From Octopus vulgaris (Eukaryota), in NCBI GenBank assembly GCA_951406725.2, contig OX597816.1:149296001-149360000 (forward strand): 64,000 bases of DNA. The letters are read 5' to 3'. Each line of letters begins with the position of its first letter. Within the stretch, counting starts at the first letter, position 1. A program made the position numbers and the translations under genes. Positions 1,915-58,295 of the stretch are shown one piece after another. Below the pieces are notes generated by a model. That model was given only the letters and a program-made list of their open reading frames with translations, had not been told where the DNA came from and made no database searches.

Positions 1915-1985
1915 CTGTGGAAGGAAATGCCGCTTCCAGTCTTGTGTTTACTGCTACAACCAAACACAGCACAGAAGTTCACCAT
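1915..1985 (-). CDS. First coding exon of a THAP zinc-finger domain (MVNFCAVFGCSSKHKTGSGISFH-R); rest of domain not found in window
   Basis: Manual translation; not in the ORF track. ATG at 1985, C-x4-C motif, SFHR, then donor CAG|GTAAGA (phase 2) at the position where THAP genes commonly have an intron. Confidence 0.8.
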
Positions 1986-3578
1986 CTTTCTACAGTGTTT
2001 TCATTCAAAGCAATATGGCTGCCCACATATACATCCAAGCATGTCGGCCGCTCACTCAGTTGGTCGGTGGGTTGGTCGGCTTAGTTCACTGCTGCTGCTG
2101 ATCCTTAGGATTTTATTCTTCCTTTCATTTTTTTTGTTGTTCTTTCATTCCATCATTTCATTCTTTATTGGTTGGTTTATCTTCCATTCGTTTGGGTGTG
2201 TTCTTCAAATTCCATCGCTATTTAATTCAGATTGGTTTGCTTGCTTTCTTATGAGATAATTCCAAAACGGAAGTGTAATCGATTAATGAATTATCTTGTA
2301 TTTTAACCACTGGAATCGACAACTATCAATGAACCAGCGTAACATATTTATTGAATGGACCTGCTCGAGTTTATAAACTTTATAAATTGCTTCAAAAATT
2401 GCTGCAGAAAACATTTTGGTGAGATTCTTTCTCTCTCTCTTTTTTTTTTTTTAGGGGTTTTCAGAGAGACTAATAAAAAATGAAAACGTTCACATTATAT
2501 ACAGAAAAAGCAATTCTTGTCAATCATCAGAACCACGAACACCACATTAATTATATGTGTTCACATGAGAGCATCAGTCCATTTGCTGGCATAGTTTTTC
2601 ATTTCTCGCAGTCAAAATACAAGATAACGAAATACACTTCCATTCGATCTTTGACTACGGATCGATTTTTTAATTTTTCAGGGTCATTTCCTTTACAACG
2701 AAGAAAATTAACTTTTATTTAATTATGAATACACCTCATAACAAACACGTGTGGAGCAAAACATTAAAAAAATCTAAGCATCGAATAAGATCATACATAG
2801 TGATTCCAACGATCTTAAAATGCTGGAAGATAAAATTCAGCAAACATTTTCCAAGCACTGACATAAAAACGCAGATAGGTGGGTATTAAGCAAAAAACAT
2901 CATTACACTTTAAATCAAATAAAAAAAACATTTCTTTCTCTAGAATGTCATATTTTAGAAAAAAATATCAACAATAAATATATGATATCTATATTTTCAA
3001 TCTGATTCATGCTATCATCATCCAAAAGCAAACAATTTTCATATCCTCATGTTCTATTGAACAGAAATGTCTTAAACCTACATAAGTAGAGCTTTATAGA
3101 GGTTGTAAAAACAACTAGGATCCTTCGCAATTCTAACAGAACAGTTACGCAACTGCGACGACCTTTATACACAAGTGGAGGTGAGGTGAGGATGATTTTT
3201 ATTAATTTCGAACAGATAAAACGAAAGTAAAGCGGTCAAGGATTTGTTGCAATTACGTCGCCATCCTGTTTATTCATTTCACAACACAATAACTACCTAA
3301 GAACATTACACGATTGTATAAACAAACAGTTGATTTTACATCAACAATAATTGTTGGATTTTATTTTGCTTTTCATAAATCAAAATTCATCCAAAAATCC
3401 AATACTTAAAAAAAAACAAAAAAAACATCTAGACTGCAACTACTCGTTATTGCCGAATCAATCGATTATATTCTCAACTTCAGCAATGTTAGAAATTATC
3501 ATTATTAATTCGGAAGTGTAAACTCACCTGTAAAAAAATGAACACATGGCATATCGATTTTGTCAGTACTTTTCTTAC

Positions 3579-3759
3579 CGCGATTAGAACATTTTGTCGG
3601 TGGCATATTCCGGAGTTCAGCTTCCTTTTTTCTCCAGTCCCGAACAAGTTTTTCATTAACACTAAATTGTCTCCCGGCTTCAGAATTATTGGTTTTCAGA
3701 GCCAGCATCACAACTTGTAGTTTAAATTTTGAAGTATATTTCATTCGTTTAAAACCCAT
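3579..3759 (-). CDS. Brinker-type HTH DNA-binding-domain exon (pogo-family transposase-derived)
   Basis: MGFKRMKYTSKFKLQVV...NNSEAGRQFSVNEKLVRDWRKK fits the BrkDBD pattern. Phase-1 donor GCG|GTAAGA after 3579; an alternative phase-1 donor CAG|GTGAGT follows 3528. Confidence 0.8.
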
Positions 3760-4378: not shown

Positions 4379-6407
4379 GAAATGATCCCTCCCTTCCAAT
4401 ATACTGATAATAAATTTTCCTTTATTTCTACTCGAAGCTTGCAAAGAAATACATTTTCTCATTAAATAGTGTCTGCATTCCTTTTTTATTTGGGTTCCTT
4501 AGCCCGTATTTCCCCCTGTACCAGTTCACTATTCCGATCACATCTCCACCCCTATACACACAATAAGAAAAAAGAAGTCCAATACAATACAATTTATTGC
4601 ATAGGATTGACAACCTTATATTAATTTAACATTAATGTCCTTTAAAAAAAAAATCAACAATAAGGAAAATAAACAGCAAAAAAGGTGTGAATAATGCTGA
4701 AGAATAAAAAGAAATCCACACTGGGAAAGAGAGATAGAAAGAGGGAAAGAGAAAGAGAGAGAGTTGTGAGGTTTTCAGCAAACCCAGGATCCGAACTAGA
4801 TTCCCGATGGAAATAGCTGCACAATGTTATTAACACTTGGAAGGGGATAGTCGTAATATCTTTTTCTCATTTCACATAAAACAATTTTTCTAATCTCACC
4901 TCTACAGGACTACATTTCTCTGAAATTCAATTGCATTCTCTTTACCTATTTTATCGAATCTCCATTTAGAAATACTAAAAACTGTTCATTGTTCTCCAAT
5001 AAGAAATGTATAATTTGAAAACAGAACCTCCTCAATTAAAAACCAATTAATAAAAGTATCTTCCACCTTATATAGAACATTTAATAACGTGTTAACTCAG
5101 CTCCACATTACTTAGTTTTGTAGGAGCAGGTAAGTGCCTACATCCCATTCTTTTGTTGAGGGTGAGTGTGGATATTGAAATCTTTCTACTTTGCGATATT
5201 CTGTATATTTTATTGTAATGTCTTCGTCAAAGAAGAACTGGGCCCAGAACACTTTTCAGAGCCTCAATAACTGCTTTCAGGAATTTTATCCTCAGATCGG
5301 GGTTCTGGTGAATATTCTCGCAATAGAATGGGCTCCGCTCACTCAAGGTGGGAATTAAACCGTACAAGAGATTAAGTTTTCCACCCAAGAACAGGAACGG
5401 TCCTTCCAATGAACTTTCACTCAGTTTCTCTCTAACTTCATTCACAACACATTGAAACTGTCAGAAAACCTTTGCCGAAGGTATTGTGTAGAGGAACCTG
5501 AAACAACGCAGCCACGAAGCGATGCTTCCATTTGCACAGCTATACTCACGCCCACTATATGCTTTGATTGTGCGTCTGCATCGATCAAGAGCTAGACAAC
5601 TGTTATTAATCATTCCAGTCCAGTAAATGCGTTAATGATTTTGTTTGGGCGGTATTAAAGAATTAAGTACTCAGAATGAAAGCTGCATCGGAAATGTATG
5701 CTCCTAACGCAAAGTTCCTAAGTCACCCTTTCAGTTCGTTTCTAAGTTTTCTGGGAAAAGACATAACGAATTTCTCCCACCCTCTTTAAGCAAAGTCTAT
5801 GCAAAGATGAACAGTTATAAATCCGTATTTTGCGCGAACTAACCTGAAGTTTGTTTATAAATCCATATTATTGGAGAAAAAAGAAAACCGGAGGTAATTG
5901 TTTACTATTAACGGGCTTGTTTACATTTGAACATGCGTTGCCAAAATCATTAAGACGGGATTTTATGATCCAAAGTAGTCACCATTCTACATTTACTTTC
6001 AAGGAAATGTACTTAGGAATACAGTATCCAATGAGTTCTTCCTTTATTTAAGACCGTGCCGTGTTCATTTGAAGGAAATAAGGATATCTTTAGCAGGTTG
6101 GGGCCCTGCATCGGGTTGCGTCATTCCTTGAAGTAAGACATACTTCTATAACTTCTGTGACGTCATGATAACTCGAATCTTAATCTGACCAATCAGAATG
6201 AGGTAGAAGGTTCGAAAAATTAAGCATCATTATAGAGATGGTGTTGGCGACACAGTGCTGAGTGAGAGAAGAAAACAGCACGAATTGGATAACTATGAAC
6301 AAACGAAACAAAGCAGAAAGGAAGAAACAATATAGATGGACTACAAATTATGCTCATGAACTGAAGAAAAAAAAACATAAAGCAGGTTTCATAGATAGTT
6401 TCTTTAC

Positions 6408-6648
6408 CAAGGTAAATCGTTGGGAGATCATAAGGACTTTCCTTACGGTTGTTCCAGAAATGCCTGCTGCACACCCGATGGTCACGACTTATATGCTTTA
6501 CTTCTTCGTAATTATTTGGGTCATAGCCAGCTCGTCGCATCCACTCATTTCTTAAATGGATATTTTTCCATGGCAGACGGTAGAAGCTAATCGGTCCACC
6601 TTTCTTCTGAAGGGACCGACAGCCTTTCACTATACATTTGGTTGGCAT
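6408..6648 (-). CDS. Complete THAP domain exon (copy A)
   Basis: MPTKCIVKGC...FYRLP...W...VCSRHF...LPTIYL contains the C2CH THAP signature and an AVPTIF-like box. 241 nt, phase-1 donor TTG|GTAAAG. Polypyrimidine acceptor ...TTTTGCTGTTGCAG| before 6726. Confidence 0.88.
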
Positions 6649-7264
6649 TTGTAGCAAACCGCAGAATAAAACCAGTTATGCAAATCAGTGAACCTACATG
6701 AATTTTTCTAAATTTCGAGATGACATCTGCAACAGCAAAAGGAAAAATACCCTAAAGATATGTCGTGTAAACCACCAATCTACCTGCTTCTGATTGGTTG
6801 GTTGATAGAACTATTTAAACAGCATAGAAACTCACTAACACCCGCATCTTTTCAAAATTCCACCTTAATTTAGAATATATTAAGAATAGCAATCACAAAA
6901 AATAATTCTTAAAATAGAGCGTATATTTTAATCTACAAGTAGAATTGATAAATTTCCGTTTGTCGCGATTAAATTTATAATGTTCAAATCACAAATTCCT
7001 ACAGAGAGAAACAATGGAAGATATAACAAGTACTTAATGTAATTCTTTTCTTAAGATCACAGAAGGATTGATACATTATTCAGTCGTTAATACACACTAA
7101 ACACCTTACGTGATAATTATGTAATTAAACTGACTGAAACAGATATACCTCACTGAAACTATATTTTTAGGATTGATAAAATTAATAACAAAAGTGCCGA
7201 TGTTCATGCAAAATAATAATAAAAAAAACAATTTTTACAATCACTTCAGTAATCCACTTTTTCA

Positions 7265-12511: not shown

Positions 12512-12755
12512 CGTATTTCGGTATGTATAAACAGCATTTCTGCATAGCACTCAGCCATTCTTTCGCTTGCTTGTTATCATCAGCTGTATTTACTTTCGGC
12601 AGTTTCTCGAGCTTATCTTTCTGCTTTCGCCATTCTCTGACCGATTTCTCATCGACAGTGAATTGTCGACCAGCAGCTCGGTTCCCATGTATTTCGGCAT
12701 AAGCTATCACTTTTAACTTCTGTTTAGCAGAGAACGATTTTCGCGCACGACCCAT
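12512..12755 (-). CDS. Brinker-type HTH DNA-binding-domain exon (second copy)
   Basis: MGRARKSFSAKQKLKVIAYAEIHGNRAAGRQFTVDEKSVREWRKQK is a BrkDBD as in POGK-like pogo transposases. 3' boundary uncertain: weak phase-1 donor ACG|GTACTG after 12512, or phase-0 AAA|GTAAAT near 12593. Confidence 0.75.
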
Positions 12756-13940: not shown

Positions 13941-15141
13941 CCATTATAGGCAAGACGATAATAAAAAACAAAACTTCGCTATTAACAAAAAAAAATAAAC
14001 GGCCAAATCCTCCAGAGTCAACTAAAAACACTCTAACCCTTTTATTTTAACGGTTACAGTTAAGTCAATAATTGTCAGCCGAATATCATTACAGGATTAT
14101 GAAGTCAATTACCAATGAAAAAGTTCCAAGTTTGAACCCTTCCCAAACAGTTTTGTCACTTTTTCAATCCCTAAACTATTTCCTTCTGAACATCATGTAT
14201 GATGAAAAGTACTGGTGCATCAAATTCTATCGCACATATTAGAGGTTTAAATTAAACATAATAGTTAACATATCTAAATTCGAAGCTGAGCTATGAATAA
14301 GATTATAGTTTTTCGGACTATTATCCTCATCTTAAGAAATTAAATATTTTAAAAATCTTAATGCAGGAGAGTTATTATATTTAAAATTCTCTGACAGAAA
14401 GGGGTGTATAGATGCTTAAAAGACAAAACGAGGGGAAATATCTGAGGTATGCATCAGTTTACTCTTTATCTCTATAAGACCGATATGAAAGGTAAACAAT
14501 AAATTAGTTGACAGTCTCTCGGCGGTAAAGCCTCCAGCATGACATCGGTGTTATAGAGTTAAACTATAAACTAACCGAAACGTTCCATTGATCAATTACA
14601 TTGCTATCATTAGAACACAACACATCTCTCGTTGAAATCAGTGTTGTTATTTGGGAACAATTACCTTCAACATCAACTCATACCGATAAATATGTATGTA
14701 CTGAGTGCTTTCTCAATGTTTTAAACTCATAACGCATACATATATATGTGTGTGAATGTGCATTATAGTATGAGGTTAATCGCTGTTTACTGATCTTAGC
14801 TTATTAATATTTTATATTTGTAAACAAATGAAAGCGATCATACACAGTATAACTCTCATTTATTTCCACCACGTTTGAAATATAAACACTCTCTCCCCCC
14901 ACTCAAACTCGTGTGACGTCACGATAACTTAGCTTCATCGACCAATGAAATTGAGGTAGAAATTTCAGGACGCCGACGACATATACACAACATTCGTTTT
15001 TGTATGTGTGTTAAGCTACTTAGTCGTTTTCATTATCACAAAATAGATAGAGGAAAAGAGAAGAGAAACGAGAGGGGTAAAGAGTGAAAATTATATTAAA
15101 AAGAGGAAAAAAAACCAAGTTTTAATAGATAGTTTCTTTAC

Positions 15142-15382
15142 CCAAATAAAACGTCGGTAGATCATAAGGACTTTCCTTGCGGTTGTTCCAAAAGTGCCTG
15201 CTGCATACTCGATGGTCACGACTAATGTGCTTCACTTCATCGTAATTATTCGGATCATAACCAGCGCGTCGTATCCACTCATTTCTTAAACGGACATTTT
15301 TCCATGGTAGTCGGTAGAAGCTAATCGGCCCGCCTTTCTTCTGAATGGAGCGACAGCCTTTCACTATACAGTTAGCCGGCAT
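15142..15382 (-). CDS. Complete THAP domain exon (copy B, paralog of 6408-6648)
   Basis: MPANCIVKGC...VCSRHF...LPTFYL. Same 241-nt length and same phase-1 donor TGG|GTAAAG as copy A; 72/80 identical residues by manual alignment. Confidence 0.88.
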
Positions 15383-17289
15383 TGTGGCGAACAATAAAGA
15401 AAAGAACTAGCGAGCCTCAGAATTGAAAATGAAGGCCAATTTGGCGATCTAGCACGGATTATTGTCACGTATCAGACGCTATCAAATACTAGCAAAAAAA
15501 CATATAATAAAGACACAATCTCATGTAGACCACCGCCTTCTACCGTCTACCCGCTTCTCATTGGTCTGTTGATAAAAGCTATTTGACTGGTTTAAAAACT
15601 CGATAACTCTCGTACTTTCACATTGATGTTTTGCTGTCACGTTGTTTTATTCTAAAATTACTATTTGGAATAATTAATCCTAATCCAACTAATAGTTGGT
15701 ATTACCAAAATGTTTTAGTACAATAAACGTCTGCATAAATTTTAACTGTTCAATCTAATGGACGGCACTTTTGTCTGAACACAATCTTAAAGGGAGTGGA
15801 ATAAAATAAGAAACATTAAGCTTTATTTTTTTTTTTACTGTTTTATTTGGATGCCCTTCCTATTGCCAATCTCTCAACAGTGAATAAGAAAGGAACAATA
15901 ATAGTAAAATTTAAAATAATTTCGTCAAAACTTGTGTTAGGTTATAAATTTGGATTTCTTATAAAAAGGAATGGCATAGTATGTGCAGTCTTAAAAATAT
16001 ATTTGTCTATTTCATATATTTATATTACTTTTGTTTTTCTTTTTTATATCTGCTTACTATGAAACAGAGATGTTGTAAGAGAATGAGAGCCTGCCCCCTC
16101 TTCCTGGATGCAAATTTTCCTCAGGCCTATCATACTTGTTAATTAAAAATTCCTCTGGTCTACCATACTTGTAAATTAAAAAATTTTCTGGCCTATCATA
16201 CTTGTTAATTCAAGTGCTCTCCTGAACACTGAAAACCCTTGCTAAGCTACTACTATGAAAGCATTGAAGGGTTTTGCCTGAAATGTGAGACTTCTTCCTC
16301 AGAGCATAAAATTATTTCATTGTTTGACTTATTGATTTATAATTAGATATACCATTTAAATGATTTATTCTGGTGAGATCTAATCATATCAGGAGTTAAA
16401 ACTTCTAATTTATCAGGGTTGATATGTATCCAATGTATAACAATGATGATGCAATCAACTAATCAGCAAAAAATCAACATACACTATCATATATTACTGC
16501 AGCTAAAGATCTCATTTGAAGTGAATATGCTGACATAAAACAATTAGTCTTAGCTGACTCAGTCTGCCTCCACAATAATAACTACAACCATCACTACTGT
16601 CACTGTTAAATACAAACAGTTGTCTAACTCATTTACACACACACAAAGGACTGGATTTAAACCATGGGAGGCCTGAAGCACTGCATGTTTGGTGGGCCCC
16701 TTATACACAAGAATTAAAATCTTAGGAAATTACCAAATTTAAATCTTAAAATCCATCTATTTCAAATAATTGAATTTGATGAATTAGCAGAGAGTTTAAA
16801 CAAATGACTGAAAATGTCACTTTATATATACACTTTTTCAAATTTCATTTTTCACACATCCATTTGCAGTGTTTCACTTTTCTTTCATTATGAATGACAG
16901 AAAATTACGAAAAAGAAACAAATAATTATTGTGGTTGTTGCTGTTCTAACGACATAATGAGTGTGTGAAAGAGAAAGAGTGGGGAAATACCAACATTTAA
17001 AAGACATGGATTTTAAAATTTCTTTTTTTAAATGGCTTCCCTTCATTCTTTTGCTATGCATGAAAAAAACAGGGGTCACCCCAACAAAGATGGAAAAATT
17101 CAAACAGCTATTCCCAAATACCTGCTTTTCCAGTAACATTTACTGCATTTTTGACTTTCAAGAAAATATATTTTTAACAAATGTTCACTAATGTGTCAAA
17201 ATTATATCAGCGAAGTAAATACCTTCTCTAAACTCAGTAAAACTTATATTCAGAACACTATTTCAGAAAATGATCACTGTTCTCTTTGA

Positions 17290-18650
17290 GCATCATCATC
17301 ATTTAATGCCCGTTTTCCATACTGGCATGGGTTGGATGGTTTGACTAGGCATTGGCAAGCCAGGAGGCTGCACCAGACTCCAGTCTGATCTGGCAATGTT
17401 TCTACAGCTGGATATCCTTCCTAACGCCAACCACTCTGAAAGTGTAGTGGGTGCTGTTTACAGGCCACCAGCTATGTTTGGATGGTGTTTTATACGTACT
17501 ACTGGCACAGGAGCCAGTCCAGGTGGGGGGAGGGGTTGACATCGACCACATTTGGATGGTGCTTTTCATGTGCCATTGGCACAGGGAGCCAGTTGGGCGG
17601 CACTGACAATGACCCCGTATGAATGGTGCTTATTGCATGCCACCAGTATGGGAGCCAGTCAGGCGGCATGAGCATGGGCTAGAACTACAATTACCATTTT
17701 TGATATCGATTTGATTGAGATTCTGATAGTAATTTTACTTGACTCAATAGGTCTCCTCAAGCATGGCATGTCACCCAACAATTCAAAGGTACTTTTTAAA
17801 TGGGCTGGTTATGCGACACTGGAAATAGGCTATGGCTGTGATCTCACTTTACTTGCCGGGTCTTCTCAATCACAGCATACCTCCAGAGGTCTCAGGCTCT
17901 TGTTGTTGCCTCTGTGAGGCCCAATGTTCGAAAGCCGTGCTTCACCACCTCATCCCATGTCTTCCTGGGTCTCCCTCTTCCACTGTTAAGGAGTGACACT
18001 TCTTCACACAACTTTCCTCGTCCATACACAGCACAGCTGTCTCTCTTGCACACATCTGAGGCTTCTTATGTCCAACATTTCTCTCAGGGTGCTTACATTC
18101 TGTTGTGTGTTCACACTGACATTACACATCCAGTGGATCATACTAGCTTTCTGCCGTGTAGTATGGGAATATACACACATGCATCATACAGTTTACCTTT
18201 TACTTTGAGTGAGAGGCCCTTTGTCACCAGTAGAGGTAGGAGCCTTCTGAACTTTGTCCAGGCTATTCTTATTCTAATGGCAACACTCTCTGAGCATCCC
18301 CCACCTTCCGCACAACAGACTAGGTCACCTAGGTAGCGGAAGCTATCAACTACTTCTAGTTTCTCCCCCTGGCGTGTGATGGAATTTGTTTTCTTTGCAT
18401 CTTCTGTGATTATTGCCCCTGTGCATCTGCTGCACACAAAAAGCTATCATCCCGGTTAACCTTCCTTTGATGTCGCTGCATCTCTTATGCATCCATAGCT
18501 TACACTGGGTACATCTTATGGGGTTTCTACCTACACTTTTTCTACAGATCAAGCAGGGCCATCTACCTAAAGGGGTTTGTGATTTGTTTGCCTTCCTACT
18601 TACTAGGACCTTGGTTTTTGCAACATTGATTCTAAGGCCCCCCACTCTTC
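17290..18650 (-). mobile_element. RTE-clade LINE 3' portion with (CAT)n-tailed 3' UTR, degraded
   Basis: ORFs 18346-18645 (GLRINVAKTKVL, CxxC motifs) and 18138-18437 (LEVVDSFRYLG...IRIAWTKFRRLLPLL...KGKLYDACV) are RT thumb/C-terminal regions; frameshifted. Confidence 0.75.
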
Positions 18651-19564
18651 CTGGCCTGTTTCTTTACTCTAATGGCCTTGTCAACTGTATTATTTCAGTA
18701 CCACATTACTCTAAGTCTGGAAGGGACTTTGCACCAGCCATAGATTTGGTCTGTGGTGCTCAGTAAGCTGTCCCATAGGAATTTCCAGTTACCCTCTATA
18801 TCCCAAGTCTCTAGCTCCTCCTCCCTCTAGTCAAATTTCTCAATGAGGATGTCCCTAAGTCTCTGACCATGCAAAAGGTTCTTTAGCTTCCAAATTCTTC
18901 TTTTCTGGATTGGTCTGCTTCTTTGTATCCGTCTGGCCTCGAGTGTAACGTCATTAATGACTAATCTATGCTGGGGGGGGGGGGGGGGTACATTCTTCAT
19001 GAGGGAGGGTCTTTGTATTTAAGAGCAACCTTGCATGTAAAACACGAATTTAGGCAGGGCAAAATGGATAAGACAAGACAAGGTAAATTTGCCCTTCCGG
19101 TTCTCCAGAATTAAATTTGAAAAACAAAGAGTCATACACATAAACATTCATCCTTAGACATCAGAAATTTTAAATATCTTGGTCAATTGAAAGAGGATAA
19201 GGGGAAAATAACACATAATATGAAATTAATGAAACTCAGCTAAGTCTAAAAATTCAATATAAGATATTCTTTATAGCTTCTTGGGCAAAAATTATCCAGA
19301 TATCTTATTAGCTACCTCAATTACAATTGAGTCAAATTTGAGGAAATATTTCTTGAAAATAATACCTGTCACCTATGTTTCAAACTCCCAACTTCAACAA
19401 CTATGTAAACCAGGGATTCTCAACCATTTTTTTACACTGATTCCTATTTCACTCCTGTGGACCCCCCCACCACCACCACACCCATTCAGTGTTTAAAAAA
19501 ATCATATTGTATTTTTATAATTAAATATTATTAGGACTTATATAAAAATTGTTAAAATATTTTG

Positions 19565-26209: not shown

Positions 26210-26249
26210 CAACATCATATTCTTCATTTATCTGATTTTGAGATTTCAA
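26210..26249 (-). CDS. 40-nt internal exon, phase 0 in / phase 1 out (LKSQNQINEEYDV-)
   Basis: Acceptor TTATTTTTTCTCCAG| and donor TTG|GTAAGT; only the phase-0 frame lacks stops. Confidence 0.6.
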
Positions 26250-26901: not shown

Positions 26902-27225
26902 GTGGCAAATGCTTCACGATGTCGTGCAGCTACTGTTTATAACTCGCTCAGAGATTTATTATTGCGTCTTAATAGAGTTTTCGGTTATAAAACTTTTACT
27001 CAATGGTGGGTTATTTAACAGTTAACGATAACAAAAGATATTGCTGTATTTAAAATAATTCGTAGTGTTGACTTTGCAGCAACACTTCTATAAATCTGTA
27101 TGTGGACACACTCATATAAATTTGTTTATAGTTTTATATTTGATAATGTTCAACAGACACACGCAAGGATTCACAGTGTGATCTATCTATCCTTCTCTCT
27201 CTCTCTATATATATATGTATATATA

Positions 27226-28739
27226 CAGTATCTTGCAAAAATATGTACACCCCTAAACAAATTTCAGTAAAATTGCCATTACTCTGATAATATCGAAGGA
27301 AATCAAACGAAATTTATACAGAATAAAGTATATTATACATGCAAATATACAAATTTGGAATACAAAACAATAAGCATTTTCAAACGATACAAAAATATGT
27401 ACACCCCAAAGAATTATTTGCCATATTCAATATTTGGTGTGACCGTCCTTGCTTTCAATGACAGTTTTCTGGGCATAGAGTCAACTAAATTTCAGCAGTT
27501 AACCGATTAAATCAACCTCCATTCATCCTGAATGATGGCTTTCAACTGTGTTACACTGCGGGGCTTTTTTCTCCTCAACCTTACTTTTCAAAACACCCCA
27601 CAGATGTTCTATTGGGTTGAAATCAGGGGACATGGTAGGTCAAGGCAATGCCTTTTCCTTTTTATATGTTAAAAACTAAGTCGTCATCTTCCTAGTTCTT
27701 TGAGGCTTTTCAACATTGCTTTCTGCAATAAGTCACAATAAAGCCTCGAACCCATTGTTCTCTCAATAAATGTGAGTCCTCCCACACCAGCCGCACGCAT
27801 GCATCCCCAAAGCCTAACACTTCCACCGCCATGTTTCAGGGCAGGCACGGTGCATTTGTCACTATCTTCACCTGGTGGTCGCAATACTCATTTAATACCA
27901 TCTGACACAAACAGGTTGATTTTAGGCTCGTCAGAAAAAAAAAAAACATTCAAAAACTCCTTCCCCTTACTTACGTAGGCTTCGGCAAAAGAAAGACGAC
28001 TTGATTTATGCCTGGTAGTGAGGAGAGGCTTCCTACGAGGAATACGTCCATGAAGACCACACTGGTTCAAACTTCGGCGAACTGTTTGAGCGGATACACT
28101 CTTTTCACTTACAGAAGACACTTCTTGGGCCAAAGATGAAGCGGTACGACGCCTGTCGTCCATCACGCAACGTTGGATGTGTCGAATATCACGCGCAGTT
28201 AAAATAGAAGGGCGACCTGGACGATGTTTATTGCTTAGCCGTCCAGTAGCTTTGTACTTCTGAATTACTTTGGCAATTGTGTTTACGCTAATATCTGTTC
28301 GTTCGCTAATTAACTTGTATCCTAAACCATTCTTGTGCAAATTAAAAATAATTTTCTTCAAATCTTCAGACAATTCTTTTCCTTTTGGTGCCATTTTAAT
28401 CACAATGAAGATTTTCACCACGGTACACAAATAAGAATTCCTGTAGATGCAATAACAGTAACCGGTGCAAAAATGCCAGAAGAAATAATTTATTAGAATT
28501 GAAATTATCAGCAATATTTTGATTTAGTGAAAAAAGTGGATAAAATATTGAATGTAGCAAATTTCCTCTATTGTGTACATATTTTTGTAACGTTTGAAAA
28601 TTAATATTTCGTTCCTATCTTTGAAAATGTTTATTATTTCATTCAGTATAAATTTCGTTTGATTTTCTTCGATATTATTAGTGTAATGGCAATTTTACTG
28701 AAATTTGTTTAGGGGTGTACATACTTCTGTGAGATGCCC
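27226..28739 (-). mobile_element. Tc1-family (IR/DR type) transposon with disrupted catalytic domain
   Basis: ~200-bp TIRs starting TA|CAGTATCTTGC, with repeated AAAAATATGTACACCCC sites. Transposase MAPKGKELSEDLKK...GRP...RRKPLL...FSDE, then frameshift to KHGGGSVRLWGC; second-D region missing; SPDFNPIEHLW remnant. Confidence 0.92.
27975..28394 (-). CDS. Intact Tc1 paired-like HTH DNA-binding region (140 codons); candidate exapted exon
   Basis: Open from ATG 28394 to a phase-0 donor TAC|GTAAGT after 27975; acceptor-like TTATTGCATCTACAG| before 28440. The visible lesions lie downstream of the donor. Confidence 0.45.
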
Positions 28740-29339
28740 TCTCTCTATATATAGATATATAGGTTATGTTTAAAATTAAAGTTTAGATAATATACTTTAA
28801 ATTGTAGTATCGAAAACTTGTTTTGGGCTAATGTCCTTAATAGTGTGCCTTGAGAGCATGTTTACCACATTCGGTTGCCAGGCGTCATCTGCGGTGCTAC
28901 ACTTTAGTCGCAGGATCTACATAAGGAATTCCTCAGTGGACATTTAGTATATTTTTAATAATTGATAGGGAAGACAATGTGTACTACAAGCTTTAATTAG
29001 CATGACAATCATTTCGGCTTACGTTTGAACTACTCCCTAGTGGGTGGAGGACGATATAATGGAAACTTCTAAATCACTATGCCGTGCTTGCACTTATATT
29101 AAACATATATATACACACATGTACATATATATATATATGTATGTATACACACATATATTTACATATATATATATATACATACATATATATACACACATAT
29201 ATATACATATATATATATGCATACATATACACGCACACACACGTATGCACACTTATAGAAATACATATGTGTACATATCTCTTTTACTCGTTTCAGCCAT
29301 GCAGCTGTGATCATGCTGGAGCACCACCATGATCTTTCT

Positions 29340-30125
29340 GACTTCCTCAGTCTGGGTGTTTCACATTACCACTCCTGTATGTGCCTTTGTCCCAGCTGTT
29401 GGTACATTTGGTGTATAAGGGAGTTTGATTCTGCTGCCCTCATGTCGGGCTGTTAGTTCATCCGGTATTGTGGAGAGGAGGATGTCTAGTTCCTTTTTGA
29501 AGACATCTATTTCTACCTTATGCAAATTTCTTAATTTTTGTGGCAGTGCATTGAAGAGCTGTGGGCCTTTGAGCCCTATACTACTGCAGTACCTGGTCCT
29601 GAATTTAGATGGAGTGGATGGCACCTTTGGTACAATACAATGGTGGCCAGTTCTGGCATTTGTATAACACTCAATGCCAAAGTTAGGTACTAGCCCTTCT
29701 AGGATTTTCAATATGTATATTATTGCACATCTCTCATGCCTTTGCTCCAGGGAGTAAAGCAGTAGTTTTCTCAGCTTATCCCTGTAGTTCATCTGCTGCA
29801 CTGTTTCAATCTTTTTAGTGTAGTGGCGTTGAACTGCTTCAAACTACTTAACATCTGTTTTTAAGGAAGTCATGCAGCCACTCTCCAAGATTATCAGCAA
29901 TGCCCTCTGCGAAGTCAAAGTGTATCACACTGACACCTGAATGGTCAAACAGCTGCTTCAAAGCCCAGTCATAGTGCTGTAAAAGCTGTGAGAAGCAGCT
30001 TCTTCCTGGACAGAGGCTATGCTGTGTATTGTTCAGTAGATCATTTTCTTCCAGGAACATTATCAACTTTCTGATGATTTGCTCCATAACTTTACTGATA
30101 TGCGAAGTCAGAGAGATTGGTCTGT
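29340..30125 (-). mobile_element. CR1/L2-group LINE reverse-transcriptase fragments
   Basis: YRPISLTSHISKVMEQII...LNNTQH...GRSCFSQLL...FDFA and C-terminal LYSLEQRHER...GPQLFNALP...FKKELD. Confidence 0.8.
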
Positions 30126-30325
30126 ACATATATATATATATATATACACGTACATCTATATACATGCAACAGGCAACAACAAAATATCCAGACAAATGAT
30201 ACAAAAAGGTAAAAGAAAAAACTAGGATGGGTCATTTCGAGTTTGCTTTGCTCAGTCTTGAGTTAAACCAGCCAAAGCTGCAAGCTTTGGCTGGTTTTAC
30301 TCAAGACTGCTCCAATCTGGCCAGC

Positions 30326-35280: not shown

Positions 35281-35511
35281 TTATATATAAAAGAAAGGTT
35301 GTGTGTCTGTCTACTCCGATTTAGATTCCTAACTACTCCCACATTTTGCGATGCGGGTATCTTATAGTCATGATTCATATCGAGCCCTTCTGGGTATTAG
35401 CGCGCGTCTACGATGAGACTATGATTTTACAAATAATTTACCATCATTTTTTTCCATTTTAATGCATATTTTAAAAAATAAACGGAAGTAACTCTCAAAC
35501 TTCACACCAAT

Positions 35512-36030
35512 ATGCGTGCTCATATGCGACGTAATATCACATCAGCAGCATTTCCTCACACCCTCCTTGCACTTGGCGAAGGCAAAATACCAGGGGATGA
35601 AAATGGTAATATTGCCATCGATTCCATTTGTACCATTGTTAAGACGCCTTCTGATCTCAGAGATGCAGTGTTCCCAGATCTACAAGCTAATTATCAGAAT
35701 ATGGATTGGATTGGCAAAAAGGCTATACTGGCCCCGAGGAATAAAACTGTTCACCATATTAATGATGAAATGCTAAAACTCATTCCTGGGGAAGTCTATG
35801 TATATCAGTCTATCGATACAACTCCTGACCCAGAGGACGTCATCAACTATCCAATAGAGGTACTCAATTCCTTTGAGCACCCCGGACTACCACCACACTT
35901 TCTCAAACTTAAAGTTGGTGCCCCTATAATGCTCATCAGAAATTTGGTTCCCCCAAAACAATGCAATGGCACACGTTTGATCGTTAAGTCCTTATCTCCC
36001 CACCGTAAGCTTATATCAATATTTGCCTGA
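35512..36030 (+). pseudogene. Helitron RepHel PIF1-like helicase fragment
   Basis: AILAPRNKTVHHIN...YPIEVLNS...GLPPHFLKLKVGAPIMLIRNL...CNGTRLIV. Confidence 0.85.
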
Positions 36031-42951: not shown

Positions 42952-43479
42952 CAGAGAATTTCCTTCAGATAATTTTGGATCTGATGGATTTCTGCCGGAC
43001 AGGACTATATTATCGTTTTTCGCTTTACGACTTACTAAATCCTGCCATTGCTCTGTAGGCTTTTCTGTGCTCAAAACAAATTGTGTGGTGGGTGAATTTT
43101 GAAAAGTTTGCAATGTCATTTTAGGGCACTGTATTGTGGGTATCGCTCCTGGCTTCAAGAACACGCGTGTGCGGCATCCGAATTTCTTCATTAAAACCCC
43201 TAGAGAATCATCGCTGGTGAAATGAAGAGAACATATGGCAGATGAAACACATGGTGCCCAGTTTTTACGCCCAGTCTGAACGAAATTGATCCATTTGGAC
43301 CTTAAAACGGGATCCTTCGGAAAGCGATGTAAACTGGTCCCGGATCCTGCACTCGAAGACTGAATGGTATCACAAAATCTAACCACGCAATGTTGGGGCA
43401 TTATTTCGATCGATCTGCTTATCTTCACGATAGATCCAAAACTATCTCTTTTCAAAAATATTTCAGTGAAAATTGCCAC
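42952..43479 (-). CDS. THAP domain exon with C-terminal linker (phase 0/0)
   Basis: MPQHCVVRFC...SLHRFPKDPVLRSKW...ICSLHF...LKPGAIPTI. Acceptor TTCTTTTCTGTTTATGTAG| before 43479; donor CTG|GTAAGT after 42952; 528 nt open. Confidence 0.88.
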
Positions 43480-44150: not shown

Positions 44151-44243
44151 CTTGTTTTTATTGAGTAACAAATCATCTTCATTTATTACATTTTTCATAA
44201 TTTCATTCAGTTTAACGATAACATTTTGCAAATCGCCTGCCAT
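44151..44243 (-). CDS. Candidate first coding exon MAGDLQNVIVKLNEIMKNVINEDDLLLNKNK (phase 0), in frame with the THAP exon at 43479
   Basis: AAAATGGC start context, 31 open codons, donor AAG|GTAGAT; CpG-richer promoter-like region at 44260-44560. Confidence 0.45.
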
Positions 44244-44777: not shown

Positions 44778-46564
44778 GGTTAATATAGGGCGTTACGATT
44801 ATCAGAAAATCAAAAAAAAAATGTGTGTAATAGGTGTAAAACAACTTCCTATGAACGAATATGAAAAAAAAAAATGCGCTCTCGCGAAGGAGGGGTGGGG
44901 GAGAGGCCTCGGAAAATTTATATCGGGAATTTCCGAAAGCGTCTGAACCGGGCACAAAAACAAAAACAAAAACAGCGTAATAGGTGTAAAACAACTTGCT
45001 CTAAACGACTATGATGAAAAAAATGCGCGCTCGCGAAAGGGGGGTGGGGGAGAGGCTTCGGAAATTTCACATCTTCAGTCCACGGCCTTTAAACTAAGAA
45101 AAAATAGTGTAATTGGTGTAAAACTACTTGTTCTAAACGAGTATCAAGAACACACACTCACACATGAATCATAAACTCCGTATTTTTGTACATATTTCGC
45201 AAAAAAAACAAAAAATAAAGAGAAGAAATTCTGGAAAAAGTGAAGAAATGTTGGATCTCATTCCTTAGTTAAAGCTATTTTAAACATTAAATTTATGCTT
45301 TTCTTTGAAATAGTTCAGATATATGCAATTCTTCTCACTTATTAAGATGCATTTATCAGAAAAAAAGAGACAGAAAAAATTATTATTTTGTGTCAATCCT
45401 TCCCTAATTATCCTTTATTAATTAGTTTTGGCGTGTATTTTTTTCCCAAATTTATTTTTTCACCTTTACAACACTGTTTAGTAAAGCAATTAATTATCTT
45501 TATAATTTGCATATTTGACTTATTAATCAAAATTCTCTCGATGTAATATATACTAAGTAATGCATCCTTCATTTATGTGTTGCGTTCTGTATTATGCATG
45601 CGTGACTGTTTGTATGTAAGTGTGTTTAACTGTGCACATGAATGTGAATATTAAAGAACATATTTATTTACTATGATTGTTATTTTCAGAACAAATAAAT
45701 CTTTTGGCTGTTATGTTATTGATGTTATTATTATTGCTAGTTAAAGGGTGGTGACTTGGCTGAATATTTTGAGTCTTGTAGTATGTAGTTGTGTTAGTCA
45801 ATATTCTGAGTTCAAATCCAACTCATTTCTTTATCATCATTATCGATGGACCACTCAAAGAGGTATGTATACATTATCATTTTCGTAACATAATTTCTGT
45901 AGTATTTCAAGATGTTTCTGACACGTATTTTGATTCACATGGCGGAGATCCAACATTTCTTCACTTTTTCCAGAATTTCTTCTCTTTATTTATTTTTTTT
46001 GCGAAATATGATTTTATGATTCATGTGTGAGTGTGTGTTCTTGATACTCGTTGAGAACAAGTAGTTTTACACCAATTACACTATTTTTTCTTAGTTTAAA
46101 GGCCGTGGACTGAAGATGTGAAATTTCCGAAGCCTCTCCCCCACCCCCCTTTCGCGAGCGCGCATTTTTTTCATCATAGTCGTTTAGAGCAAGTTGTTTT
46201 ACACCTATTACGCTGTTTTTGTTTTTGTTTTTGTGCCCGGTTCAGACGCTTTCGGAAATTCCCGATATAAATTTTCCGAGGCCTCTCCCCCACCCCTCTT
46301 TCGCGAGAGCGCATTTTTTTTTCATATTCGTTTAGAGCAAGTTGTTTTACACATATTACACTATTTTTTTTTTGTTTTGGTGCCCGGGTCAGCCCCTCAG
46401 ACGCTTTCGGAACTTCCCGATGTGAATTTTCCGAGGCCTCTCCCCCATCCCCCTTTCGCGTGCGCGAATTTTTTTTTTCATATTCGTTCATAGGAAGTTG
46501 TTTTACACCTATTACACAAATTTTTTATTTGATTTTCTGATAATCGTAACGCCCTATATTAACC
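44778..46564. mobile_element. Non-autonomous foldback element with long tandem-repeat-containing TIRs (Merlin-like)
   Basis: Ends GGTTAATATAGGGCGTTACG / CGTAACGCCCTATATTAACC; exact 8-bp TSD AATAATAC. Arms ~44778-45260 and ~45945-46564 contain ~125-bp subrepeats. Confidence 0.88.
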
Positions 46565-52657: not shown

Positions 52658-53062
52658 TTTGTTCGTGTTTCTTTGTCTTATACATCCAGGAGTATTTGTG
52701 ATAGCCAGTATTTCTGGAACAGATATTGTTGAAATGGGACTGTTTATTGCGACAGATAATCTTGTTGCATGTGATTCCATCGCTCGTATCATCTCTCCTT
52801 CCGCTCTAAACTTATTACTTTTCTCAATGTTCGTCGAATCTTCAGTGTGGTTGTGAGTCTTGTGCAATTTTGTTATTGTGTTGTTACAGATGTGCAACCT
52901 TGCTTTGCAACGCAACGATTTTTTTCTGTAACATGAGTAAAAGCGTGTGTCTTCATCTGTTTTACTCATTTTTTCATAATTGAAAATATATCCTTCGTAC
53001 ATCACTTTGTCGTGACCGTCTGTTACAGGAATCCATATACCGTTATATGGGTTTTGCTCCAT
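52658..53062 (-). CDS. FLYWCH zinc-finger exon (Mutator-transposase-type DNA-binding domain)
   Basis: VMYEGYIF...FYSCYRKKSLRCKARLH...HNH; 135 open codons; phase-0 donor AAA|GTAAGT. Confidence 0.85.
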
Positions 53063-53863: not shown

Positions 53864-54349
53864 CGTAAGTTCCCCGGTTGATGGGCTACCTGCTTCTCCA
53901 GTGGTAATTTTATTACACATTCCATGGCGATTTCTAAATCGCCATAACCACCCATCACTAGCTACAAAATTGTCGATGCCCATGTCCCTAGCTAACTTGA
54001 CAGCAGCACTTTGAATTTCCACACCACGGATGTTATTACCACAAGATCGTTGATGGATAAACCACTTCGTCACAGCTTCCTCAAGATTTGTATCTTTTGC
54101 AACTCTCATACGCTTCCTTGCACCAACAGATAGTTTAGAATTTGCAGCAACATTATATTTCAAAGAAAATGTAGTAAGTTTGTCCTTAGCTTTGCGTATA
54201 CCTGAAACTGTCTGTTTTTTAATACCATATTGAACACAAATACTCGTCACCGAAGCACCAGCCTCTAACTTCTTTATAAGTTCCAGTTTCTGGATCACAG
54301 ATAGAGTAACATGCTTTTTCTTTGGCTTCTTACTTTCTCTTGTAGCCAT
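53864..54349 (-). CDS. CENP-B-type / Tigger-jerky double HTH DNA-binding exon, no DDE domain
   Basis: KKKHVTLSVIQKLELIKKLE...YGIKKQTVSGIRK and LEEAVTKWF...FVASDGWLWRFRNRHG...GEAGS. 162 codons; phase-0 donor ACG|GTATGA; acceptor TAACTTTCAG| before 54365. Confidence 0.88.
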
Positions 54350-54589: not shown

Positions 54590-55085
54590 ACCTTCATTTA
54601 ACGTCCGTTTTCCATGCTGGCATGGGTTGAATGGTTTGACTGGTAAGCTGGGGAGCTGCACCAGGTTCCAGTCTGATTTGGCACGGTTTCTGTGGCTGGA
54701 TGCCCTTCCTAACGCCAACCACTCCAAGAGTGTAGTGGGTACTTGTTATGCGACACTGGCATTGGCCACACTTATGATTTCACTTGGCTTGATGGTCTCC
54801 TCATATCGCCAAAGGTCTTGGTCACTTGTCATTGCCTCTGTGAGGCCCAATGTTTGATGGTCATGCTTCACCACCTTGTCCCATGTCTTCCTGGGTCTAT
54901 CTCCTCCACACATTCCCTCCACTGTTAGAGTTTGGTACATTTTCACACAGCTGGCCTCATCCGTGCACGTCACATGACCATACCAATGCAGTCGTCTCTC
55001 TTGCACACCACATCTGATGCATCTTATGCCCAACTTTTCTCTCAAGACACTGTTGTGCATTCACACTGACATTACACATCCAGCT
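54590..55085 (-). mobile_element. RTE-clade LINE 3' end
   Basis: LREKLGIR...QERRLHWYGHV...VEG...RPRKTW. Confidence 0.8.
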
Positions 55086-55179
55086 TCATTTCTTTCAAAT
55101 CTGCAATCAATTTTACATCTGACACGTGACACACTGTACACCAGTACAGGTAAATACTCTTTTGATAGAGAGAGTGTGC

Positions 55180-56330
55180 ATTGTGCATCGTCCAGGAATG
55201 ATGGCATATCAGCTGAGGTATATGAATATGGTAGCAGTCACCTGCAGAACAAGTTACGTGAACTCTTAATCTGGGAATTAAGATCAGTCCCACAGGAGTT
55301 TAAAGATACCTTTATTGTCCATCTTTATACGCATAAAGGCAACAAATGTGAAAGTGACAACCATAGAGGTATCTCCCTTTTGTGTGTTGCTGGGAAGATC
55401 CTTAGAAAGTTTATCTTAAACAGACTAAATGATGCCCTTGCCAGCTTAGTGTTGCCTGAATCTCAGCATAGATTTTGGGCTGGTAGAGGCACAGTAGATG
55501 TGATTTTTAGCCTAAGGCAGCTGCAGGAAAAGGTTTGTGAGCAGAACCAAGAACATTTTGTTACTTTTGTAGATCTAACTGAAGCTTTTGACACTATATC
55601 TAGGGATGTTCTTTTGGTTGTCCTTAGAAAGCTAGGTGTTCCCAAAAAGATGCCCAATGTCATCATTTCTTTCCATCAAGGGATGATGGCTTCTGTCAGA
55701 TCTAGCGGGTAAGTGTCCGATTCATTCACAGTTTCAAATGAGATGAAACAAGGCTGTGTTCTTGCACTGCTCTTATTTGCTTTGTATTTCTCCATCATGT
55801 TGGAAACAATGTTTGTGGGTGTTAAAAAAGGAGAAAAGTTTGAGTACAGAACTGGTGGTGGCTTGTTCAACCAACTGCACTTCAAAGCAAAAACTAAGAT
55901 TTTGGTACAAGCAGTTCAAGATTTGCTCTTTGCAGATGATTGTGCACTTGTAGCATACACTCTTGAGGACATACAATGGATTCTAAACAACTTTTCATGT
56001 GCATCGAAGGCTTTTGATCTGACCATCAGCATCAAAAAAACTGATCTTGTCCATCTGCTCATTCTTGACCATCTTCCCACTGTTGCCCCTATTGTATATG
56101 TTGATGGGAAAGCATTAAAAACTGTTCTTGGTTCCATTGTGTCCAATGATGCTAAGATGGATAAAGTAATTGTGTCCAGAATCAGGAAGGCTAATTCCAC
56201 TTTTGGTAAGCTTTATCATAGGCTTTGGAACAGCCACAACGTATTGTTGAAGGTGAAAGTCAATGTAAAGAAGTCAGAGGTCTTGACAACATTGCTTTAT
56301 GGTGCTGAATCTTATGAACTTTTCAGCTGA
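55180..56330 (+). mobile_element. RTE-clade LINE reverse transcriptase, disrupted
   Basis: DGISAEVY...NHRGISLL...LPESQ..F..GRGTVD...FVDLTEAFD, stop, KQGCVLA...LLFADDC...LLYGAES. Confidence 0.9.
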
Positions 56331-58118: not shown

Positions 58119-58295
58119 CATCATAAAGTTTTTATGTTTCTTTACATAACGGATTAATGTTGTTTTTGGAATGCTAAATATTTTAGAAGCTTTCATGTAA
58201 CCCAGCTCTCCTTTCAAGACAGCCATAATAGCTCCTTGAAGATTTTCTTTGTGCCATGAACCCTGTTGTGTTTTTCTGCAATAATTCCTCACCAT
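58119..58295 (-). CDS. Pipsqueak-type HTH (HTH_psq) DNA-binding exon
   Basis: MVRNYCRKT...W.KENLQGAIMAV..G.LGYMKASKIFSIPKTTLIRYV. Acceptor TTATTATTTTCAG| directly before the ATG; phase-0 donor ATG|GTAAGT; 177 nt. Confidence 0.88.

Follow-up and report, generated by a model that had tools for sequence, protein, structure and literature searches.

In a BTB gene of Octopus vulgaris, a Tc1-family transposon has probably supplied a variable exon. The explanation favoured here is that codons 1–140 of its transposase are spliced from position 27975 to a shared 40-nt exon, giving a Tc1-HTH/BTB isoform that would be kept by purifying selection while the catalytic half of the transposase decayed. The observed basis for this consists of the position, orientation and frame match of the element, the use of the 40-nt exon by four of its neighbours in the available gene models of O. 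bimaculoides, and the asymmetric decay of the transposase. The element is likely to represent a host-transposase fusion exon within an array that mirrors the layout of mod(mdg4) and lola.

The host BTB gene and its variable exons

The window, i.e. the whole stretch of 64,000 nucleotides that was analysed, is AT-rich animal DNA and is part of an octopus BTB gene, the counterpart of O. bimaculoides LOC106877732. Stop-to-stop segments were scanned with Pfam (13 first, then 147 of 173 on the minus strand and 139 of 166 on the plus strand). Besides the Tc1 element, eight short open reading frames with DNA-binding domains were found, namely psq, CENP-B-type, FLYWCH, three THAP and two Brinker-type, all on the minus strand; none was detected among the 139 plus-strand segments scanned. 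The Tc1 element, with its ATG at 28394 on the minus strand, is co-oriented with all eight; the original prediction had stated this for the array. The features of the array are as follows.

58119..58295, minus strand: HTH_psq variable exon, internal, phase-0 donor (Pfam, O. bimaculoides models)
53864..54349, minus strand: CENP-B-type HTH variable exon, phase-0 donor (Pfam, O. bimaculoides models)
52658..53062, minus strand: FLYWCH variable exon, phase-0 donor (Pfam, P0051)
42952..43479, minus strand: THAP variable exon, phase-0 donor, preceded by a short coding exon at 44151-44198
26210..26249, minus strand: shared 40-nt exon, phase 0 in and phase 1 out; psq, CENP-B, FLYWCH and THAP isoforms all include it in the available O. 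bimaculoides models
15142..15382, minus strand: THAP variable exon, phase 1, direct to the next constant exon
12594..12755, minus strand: Brinker-type DNA-binding-domain ORF, presumed variable exon, putative donor
6408..6648, minus strand: THAP variable exon, phase 1
3528..3759, minus strand: Brinker-type DNA-binding-domain ORF, presumed variable exon, putative donor
1915..1985, minus strand: first coding exon of another, intron-split THAP isoform

A query with the FLYWCH domain returned protein P0051, which is isoform X9 of O. bimaculoides LOC106877732. In P0051 the FLYWCH exon is followed by the 40-nt exon (26249-26210) and then by a constant region with a BTB domain at residues 357-460, which is encoded outside the window. 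Further isoforms of LOC106877732 are tabulated in Table1.XLSX of PMC10027918. In the supplement rows available, the psq, CENP-B and THAP (43479-42952) exons join the 40-nt exon in phase 0, and the THAP exons at 15382 and 6648 pass directly to the next constant exon in phase 1. Because the psq, CENP-B and THAP exons all join in phase 0, that phase is the rule upstream of the 40-nt exon, and the Tc1 donor obeys it. The 40-nt exon has no paralogue elsewhere in the window. As far as the available models go, the array and its adapter exon are real in the annotation of this close species. Atlas searches returned the names BTB and Tc1 HTH only.

The accessible text of PMC10027918 speaks of THAP and CENPB genes from BTB sources, and the word 'isoform' is absent from it. 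As they carry the same locus identifier and the same constant region, several of the octopus THAP, CENP-B, psq and FLYWCH 'genes' in the available rows are isoforms of one gene, and the published count reads differently when they are so regarded.

The array runs from 1915 to 58295 on the minus strand and gives one BTB gene a choice of nine or more DNA-binding exons, which belong to five domain types. The O. bimaculoides rows available list more THAP exons, spread across ~180 kb, and four distinct entry points into the constant region; a neighbouring FLYWCH-BTB gene, LOC106877745, is given in one row. The best donor of the Brinker-type ORF at 12594-12755 is in phase 0 though the ORF lies downstream of the 40-nt exon, and another linker exon or donor would therefore be needed. 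In model P0053, the THAP exon at 15382 is joined to a short terminal exon (2602-2690, minus strand) in place of the BTB region; the model may be mispredicted or may represent a truncated isoform. Other features of the window are an inverted duplication of ~450 nt (94% identical, 44778-46564) upstream of the THAP exons at 44198, a Helitron-like Pif1 helicase fragment at 35482-36030 beside CpG-rich repeats, and retroelement fragments on both strands with RVT_1 matches (18349-18663, which has a PHD-like finger, 29851-30231 and 54978-56330).

The Tc1 element and its candidate splice sites

The element lies in sense inside the host transcription unit, downstream of the THAP exon (42952) and upstream of the 40-nt exon. 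Its parts are listed below.

27226..28739, minus strand: Tc1-family DNA transposon with long TIRs that contain internal direct repeats, non-functional as a transposase
28543..28739, minus strand: 5' TIR, outer end degenerate, with no terminal CAG and no TA
28440..28460, minus strand: candidate acceptor CTACAG/G in the element 5' UTR, first exon base 28440
27975..28394, minus strand: codons 1-140, which encode the bipartite HTH DNA-binding domain; better conserved than in other copies and a candidate variable exon
28107..28112, minus strand: second phase-0 GTAAGT, after codon 94 (28113), rival donor
27969..27974, minus strand: phase-0 GTAAGT following codon 140, where the second HTH region ends, putative donor
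27427..27974, minus strand: decayed catalytic region, from alignment to intact relatives
27226..27424, minus strand: 3' TIR, whose plus-strand reading ends TA|CAGT

The original prediction that both TIRs are kept holds for the inverted repeats of ~200 nt found at both ends, not for the outermost 5' end, which has lost the terminal CAG and the TA. The two TIRs show 26 mismatches in 184 aligned columns and eight gap runs, with seven differences in the outer 20 nt; the TA is kept at 27224-27225 and gone at the 28739 end. TIR divergence was not taken as a strict clock, since the two TIRs of such long-TIR elements need not begin identical. A 23-nt (CT)n(AT)n direct repeat is present on either side of the element (27199-27221 and 28739-28761) and abuts the damaged 5' TIR end; it is of low complexity and possibly reflects chance or a local duplication. 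A search for DNA of the family in bacterial and archaeal genomes gave one weak locus in 279 stretches, which was not used.

From the ATG the transposase frame is open for 168 codons, so that the 140 codons proposed as an exon are intact and the open frame continues beyond them. These 140 codons encompass the whole bipartite HTH, with Pfam domains HTH_SB at 4-52 and HTH_Tnp_Tc3_2 at 71-140 (profile positions 2-70 of 72). The first HTH matches the PAI subdomain of Sleeping Beauty (PDB 2m8e, E=6e-6). The predicted fold has a mean pLDDT of 84.9, resembles the DNA-binding domains of paired, Tc3 and SETMAR, and has its last helix at 127-139; the codon-140 donor thus coincides with the end of both the Pfam Tc3 HTH domain and the last predicted helix.

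The junction at codon 140 reads TAC/GTAAGT (27975), in phase 0, and is 1726 nt from the acceptor of the 40-nt exon at 26249, in agreement with the earlier estimate of about 1.7 kb to a phase-0 adapter exon that the available O. bimaculoides models join to phase-0 variable exons. If 27975 is joined to 26249, the reading frame passes through with no stop. The hexamer GTAAGT is common, with 14 copies per strand of the window, and alone is weak evidence for a donor. On the 5' side, gene model P0006 enters the element at the candidate acceptor at 28440; this site lies 46 nt before the ATG, so that a join to the phase-0 THAP donor would not preserve the reading frame. A run of ~14 T residues (minus strand, 27936-27949) is found ~25 nt after the donor, where it replaces the codons before SDE and leaves the frame unshifted; that such a U-rich run might help donor use is speculation.

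Beyond the donor the transposase is heavily damaged. In comparison with two intact relatives of 340 aa, there are five stops (codons 169, 256, 268, 312 and 317) and three frameshifts (27686, 27573 and 27464), as well as an in-frame 3-nt deletion at 27863. The frameshift at 27686 is a 46-nt deletion that takes out the second catalytic Asp: of the DD34E triad, D155 and E279 are present and D244 is deleted, and the triad is complete in relatives P0002 and P0004. All eight disabling lesions fall after codon 168 and hence 3' of the donor (P ~0.011), as had been proposed for the frameshift, the stops and the loss of the second Asp. The proposed loss of conserved Trp residues is clear for W148L; position 153 is W, L or C among relatives.

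Conservation, age and alternative readings

Conservation was assessed entirely at the protein level. The family search yielded 38 matches among 125 candidates, 10 of them named O. vulgaris. Eight of these 10 were used as controls in the rate tests, after trimming where homology stops; P0035 and P0037, which match just 27% and 19% of the query, were left out. The controls are predicted proteins and not a random sample of copies, and one of them (P0027) spans the catalytic region. They were found with this copy as the query and are open-frame gene models, which would bias them towards less divergence, not more.

Secure sites are defined as positions with the same residue in both intact relatives and in most copies. 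At such sites in codons 1-140, this copy has 1 change among 83 relative to the inferred ancestor, compared with 70 of 543 in the eight controls (Fisher P=6e-4), whose individual rates of change range from 10.4 to 16.7%. Measured against the majority of the other copies, changes number 6/131 here and 113/831 in the controls (P=0.002); two of the six (V40I and T139A) are common to another copy. The deficit is also found at non-CpG sites, with 4/103 versus 85/711 (P=0.011) if codon 31 is uncounted and 5/104 if it is included. CpG-type changes amount to 20 in 128 cells of the other copies and to none at 21 codons of this one (P ~0.03).

Within the element itself, 2 of 76 secure sites are changed up to codon 140 and 18 of 90 beyond it (Fisher P=5e-4). 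The same split in control P0027 gives uniform values, 5/48 and 7/64. Divergence is thus lower 5' of the donor than 3' of it, as the original prediction had anticipated, and the same comparison rejects uniform neutral decay. A change point fits best at codons 137-138 (permutation P=0.0008), with an interval of 86-143. Codons 1-50, which hold the first HTH, display no deficit (4/50 versus 39/400, P=0.45) and carry the radical private changes K31E, I33T and H34D; the conservation signal therefore rests on the linker and the second HTH. The open frame of 140 codons is unremarkable alone, as the probability of finding no stop is ~0.4 at 6% neutral divergence. It is the low substitution rate that goes beyond chance. 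Judged from these sequence comparisons, the pattern looks like purifying selection on a long-established exon and not like recruitment in progress.

The donor after codon 140 is probably largely ancestral to the family. P0003 shares V141 with this copy, and models P0001 and P0005, on other contigs, exit the transposase exactly at Y140 with tails that match no element frame, a pattern to be expected had gene predictors taken the same donor. P0033, which is more distantly related, differs at codons 141-142. Ancestral splice sites were reported for nine traced fusions in the accessible part of Cosby et al. (bioRxiv 10.1101/2020.05.07.082677). With respect to age, the catalytic half has lost ~20% of its conserved residues. 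Exons of the host gene are nearly identical in the two octopus species, with 5 of 482 nt different in two THAP exons, all synonymous in a comparison by eye, and 5 of 135 residues different in the FLYWCH exon. Set against these exons, the ~20% decay at conserved 3' sites would place the insertion before the species split; both insertion and capture are likely to be old and to predate the separation from O. bimaculoides. The original description of an element 'being recruited' is therefore not upheld. That recruitment is recent or ongoing through a newly arisen donor is extremely improbable: both TIRs and a catalytic remnant are still discernible and the hexamer may be partly derived, given P0033, but the gap between the 5' and 3' parts requires long-standing constraint, and the extent of 3' decay, the V141 shared with P0003 and the exits at Y140 in P0001 and P0005 oppose a late origin.

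A different view is that the element is an unspliced neutral fossil, whose 5' half would look conserved only through a low local mutation rate in unmethylated DNA or through an old gene conversion from a then-young copy. Consistent with this, the CpG observed/expected ratio is 1.15 in codons 1-140 versus 0.48 in the 3' coding part, no annotated fusion came from the 543 candidates considered below, and the open frame and the GT at codon 141 are found in other copies also. This reading is nevertheless unlikely. The deficit remains at non-CpG sites, 14 of the 22 CpGs are in Arg codons that selection alone would keep, the adjoining 5' TIR has decayed, and the conservation boundary coincides with the donor. 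In addition, no near-intact octopus copy able to convert this one was found among the 38 family matches. CpG richness was also considered as a sign of a promoter and is indecisive on account of the same Arg codons. Rather less probable is a real exon whose main donor is the GTAAGT after codon 94 (28113), alone or with the codon-140 site, so that a shorter DNA-binding module would be made. The two hexamers are identical, share a phase and both lead in frame into the 40-nt exon; conservation is highest in codons 51-94 (0/42), and the change-point interval takes in codon 94. However, codons 95-140 are also conserved (1/28 versus 23/122, P=0.02, position 139 being dropped for low coverage), and a donor at codon 94 would divide the second HTH, separating predicted helix 85-96 from helix 102-112. 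The frame, open from the ATG to codon 168, could also encode a stand-alone truncated transposase of 168 aa, unspliced and unrelated to the BTB gene, that represses its own family; truncated transposases can function as repressors. This is very doubtful, since codons 141-170 have decayed, with five private changes versus one in control P0003, and conservation ends at an in-frame donor for an exon that the neighbours use.

Proposed mechanism and relation to known systems

The favoured Tc1-HTH/BTB isoform would have arisen as follows. A Tc1 element inserted in sense within the variable-exon array, and its mostly pre-existing donor after codon 140 would have been joined to the 40-nt exon. The product would be a protein of ~736 aa, comprising 140 residues of the transposase and 596 constant residues of P0051, i.e. 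a paired-like sequence-specific DNA binder tethered to a BTB domain. Selection would then probably have kept the DNA-binding half as the catalytic half decayed. The Tc1 sequence would be either a first exon, with transcription driven by the element, or an internal exon entered at 28440. By analogy with SETMAR and KRAB-transposase fusions, the protein would probably recognize the direct repeats in the TIRs of its own family, and if so, old Tc1 copies would constitute a ready-made set of binding sites.

A search for an octopus Tc1-HTH/BTB fusion among 543 candidates of 371-2000 aa produced 12 matches, none from octopus and none above 57% identity; this negative carries little weight, as such a protein would have ~81% of its length in common with P0051 and could be concealed in the P0051 cluster. 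One ambiguously labelled supplement row of PMC10027918 shows 350 residues, in which there is no Tc3 domain; judged by the length of its cell, the protein would be of ~788 aa, too short to accommodate one. The THAP exon and P0051 give not even a weak match to the Tc3 domain. The label may come from another isoform and is a lead only.

Host-transposase fusions such as KRABINER, SETMAR and PGBD3-CSB (10.1101/2020.05.07.082677) follow a common course in the portion of that work available: the element inserts in a host gene and contributes a splice site, its DNA-binding domain becomes linked to a regulatory domain of the host, and selection follows. The octopus locus appears to work in the same way: two of the four defining features are indicated by the sequence, the in-sense insertion and purifying selection on the captured domain, the latter from the protein-level rate tests. 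There are differences. In the same source, eight of nine traced sites are acceptors before the transposase ORF, whereas the candidate octopus site is a donor inside the ORF. That donor would cut off the catalytic domain and place the HTH at the N-terminus, the partner is a BTB domain, and the exon is one of many alternatives.

The F-box A2 genes of Caenorhabditis (PMC12062965, seen in part) are comparable in that a single-exon N-terminal Tc1/mariner HTH is combined with a protein-interaction domain. These derive from one capture followed by gene duplication and have a single HTH and no flanking transposon, whereas in octopus the whole element is visible. Resemblance to Sleeping Beauty-like Tc1 elements is found in the PAI-type first HTH, the long TIRs with internal direct repeats and the intact relatives of 340 aa; the octopus copy differs from these in being catalytically dead and damaged at its 5' end.

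Drosophila mod(mdg4) and lola, as described in the available part of PMC11426971, likewise combine one BTB region with many alternative DNA-binding exons, FLYWCH included. There the variable part is C-terminal, the BTB domain belongs to the TTK type, which is specific to arthropods, and use is made of trans-splicing. In octopus the variable parts are of mixed types, are N-terminal to the BTB domain and are co-linear on one strand, so that cis-splicing is enough. The octopus locus works like mod(mdg4) and lola with the layout reversed, and is not a member of that group. The openly accessible literature searched contained no account of this Tc1 exon, nor one that treats the locus as a variable-exon array. 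Captured transposase domains are usually found without the parent element, and the route of capture has then to be inferred; in octopus the TIRs and the donor can be seen together with the conserved and the decayed half of the transposase, which makes the route datable and testable.

More tentatively, and with somewhat less than even confidence, the BTB gene can be viewed as a standing trap for the DNA-binding domains of transposons. Any in-sense element upstream of the shared exon that has an in-frame donor could give rise to a new transcription factor isoform. The Tc1 exon would be the most recent capture, with its parent element still complete around it, and the cephalopod system would mirror mod(mdg4) and lola by convergence. 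It is plausible that the rest of the array grew by the same transposon route. Catalytic remnants were looked for behind the other eight exons, and there were no relevant Pfam matches in the 85 short segments scanned of 87 listed, or in the 147 of 173 minus-strand segments. Two THAP exons (6363-6659 and 15103-15392) are 85% identical in DNA, and exon duplication thus also enlarges the array. Proteins P0056 and P0058 represent a paralogous BTB gene (39% identity over 257 columns) with a THAP front end. The P0058 model places a whole HTH+DDE_3 transposase between the THAP and BTB parts, a composition that hints at repeated capture in this BTB gene family.
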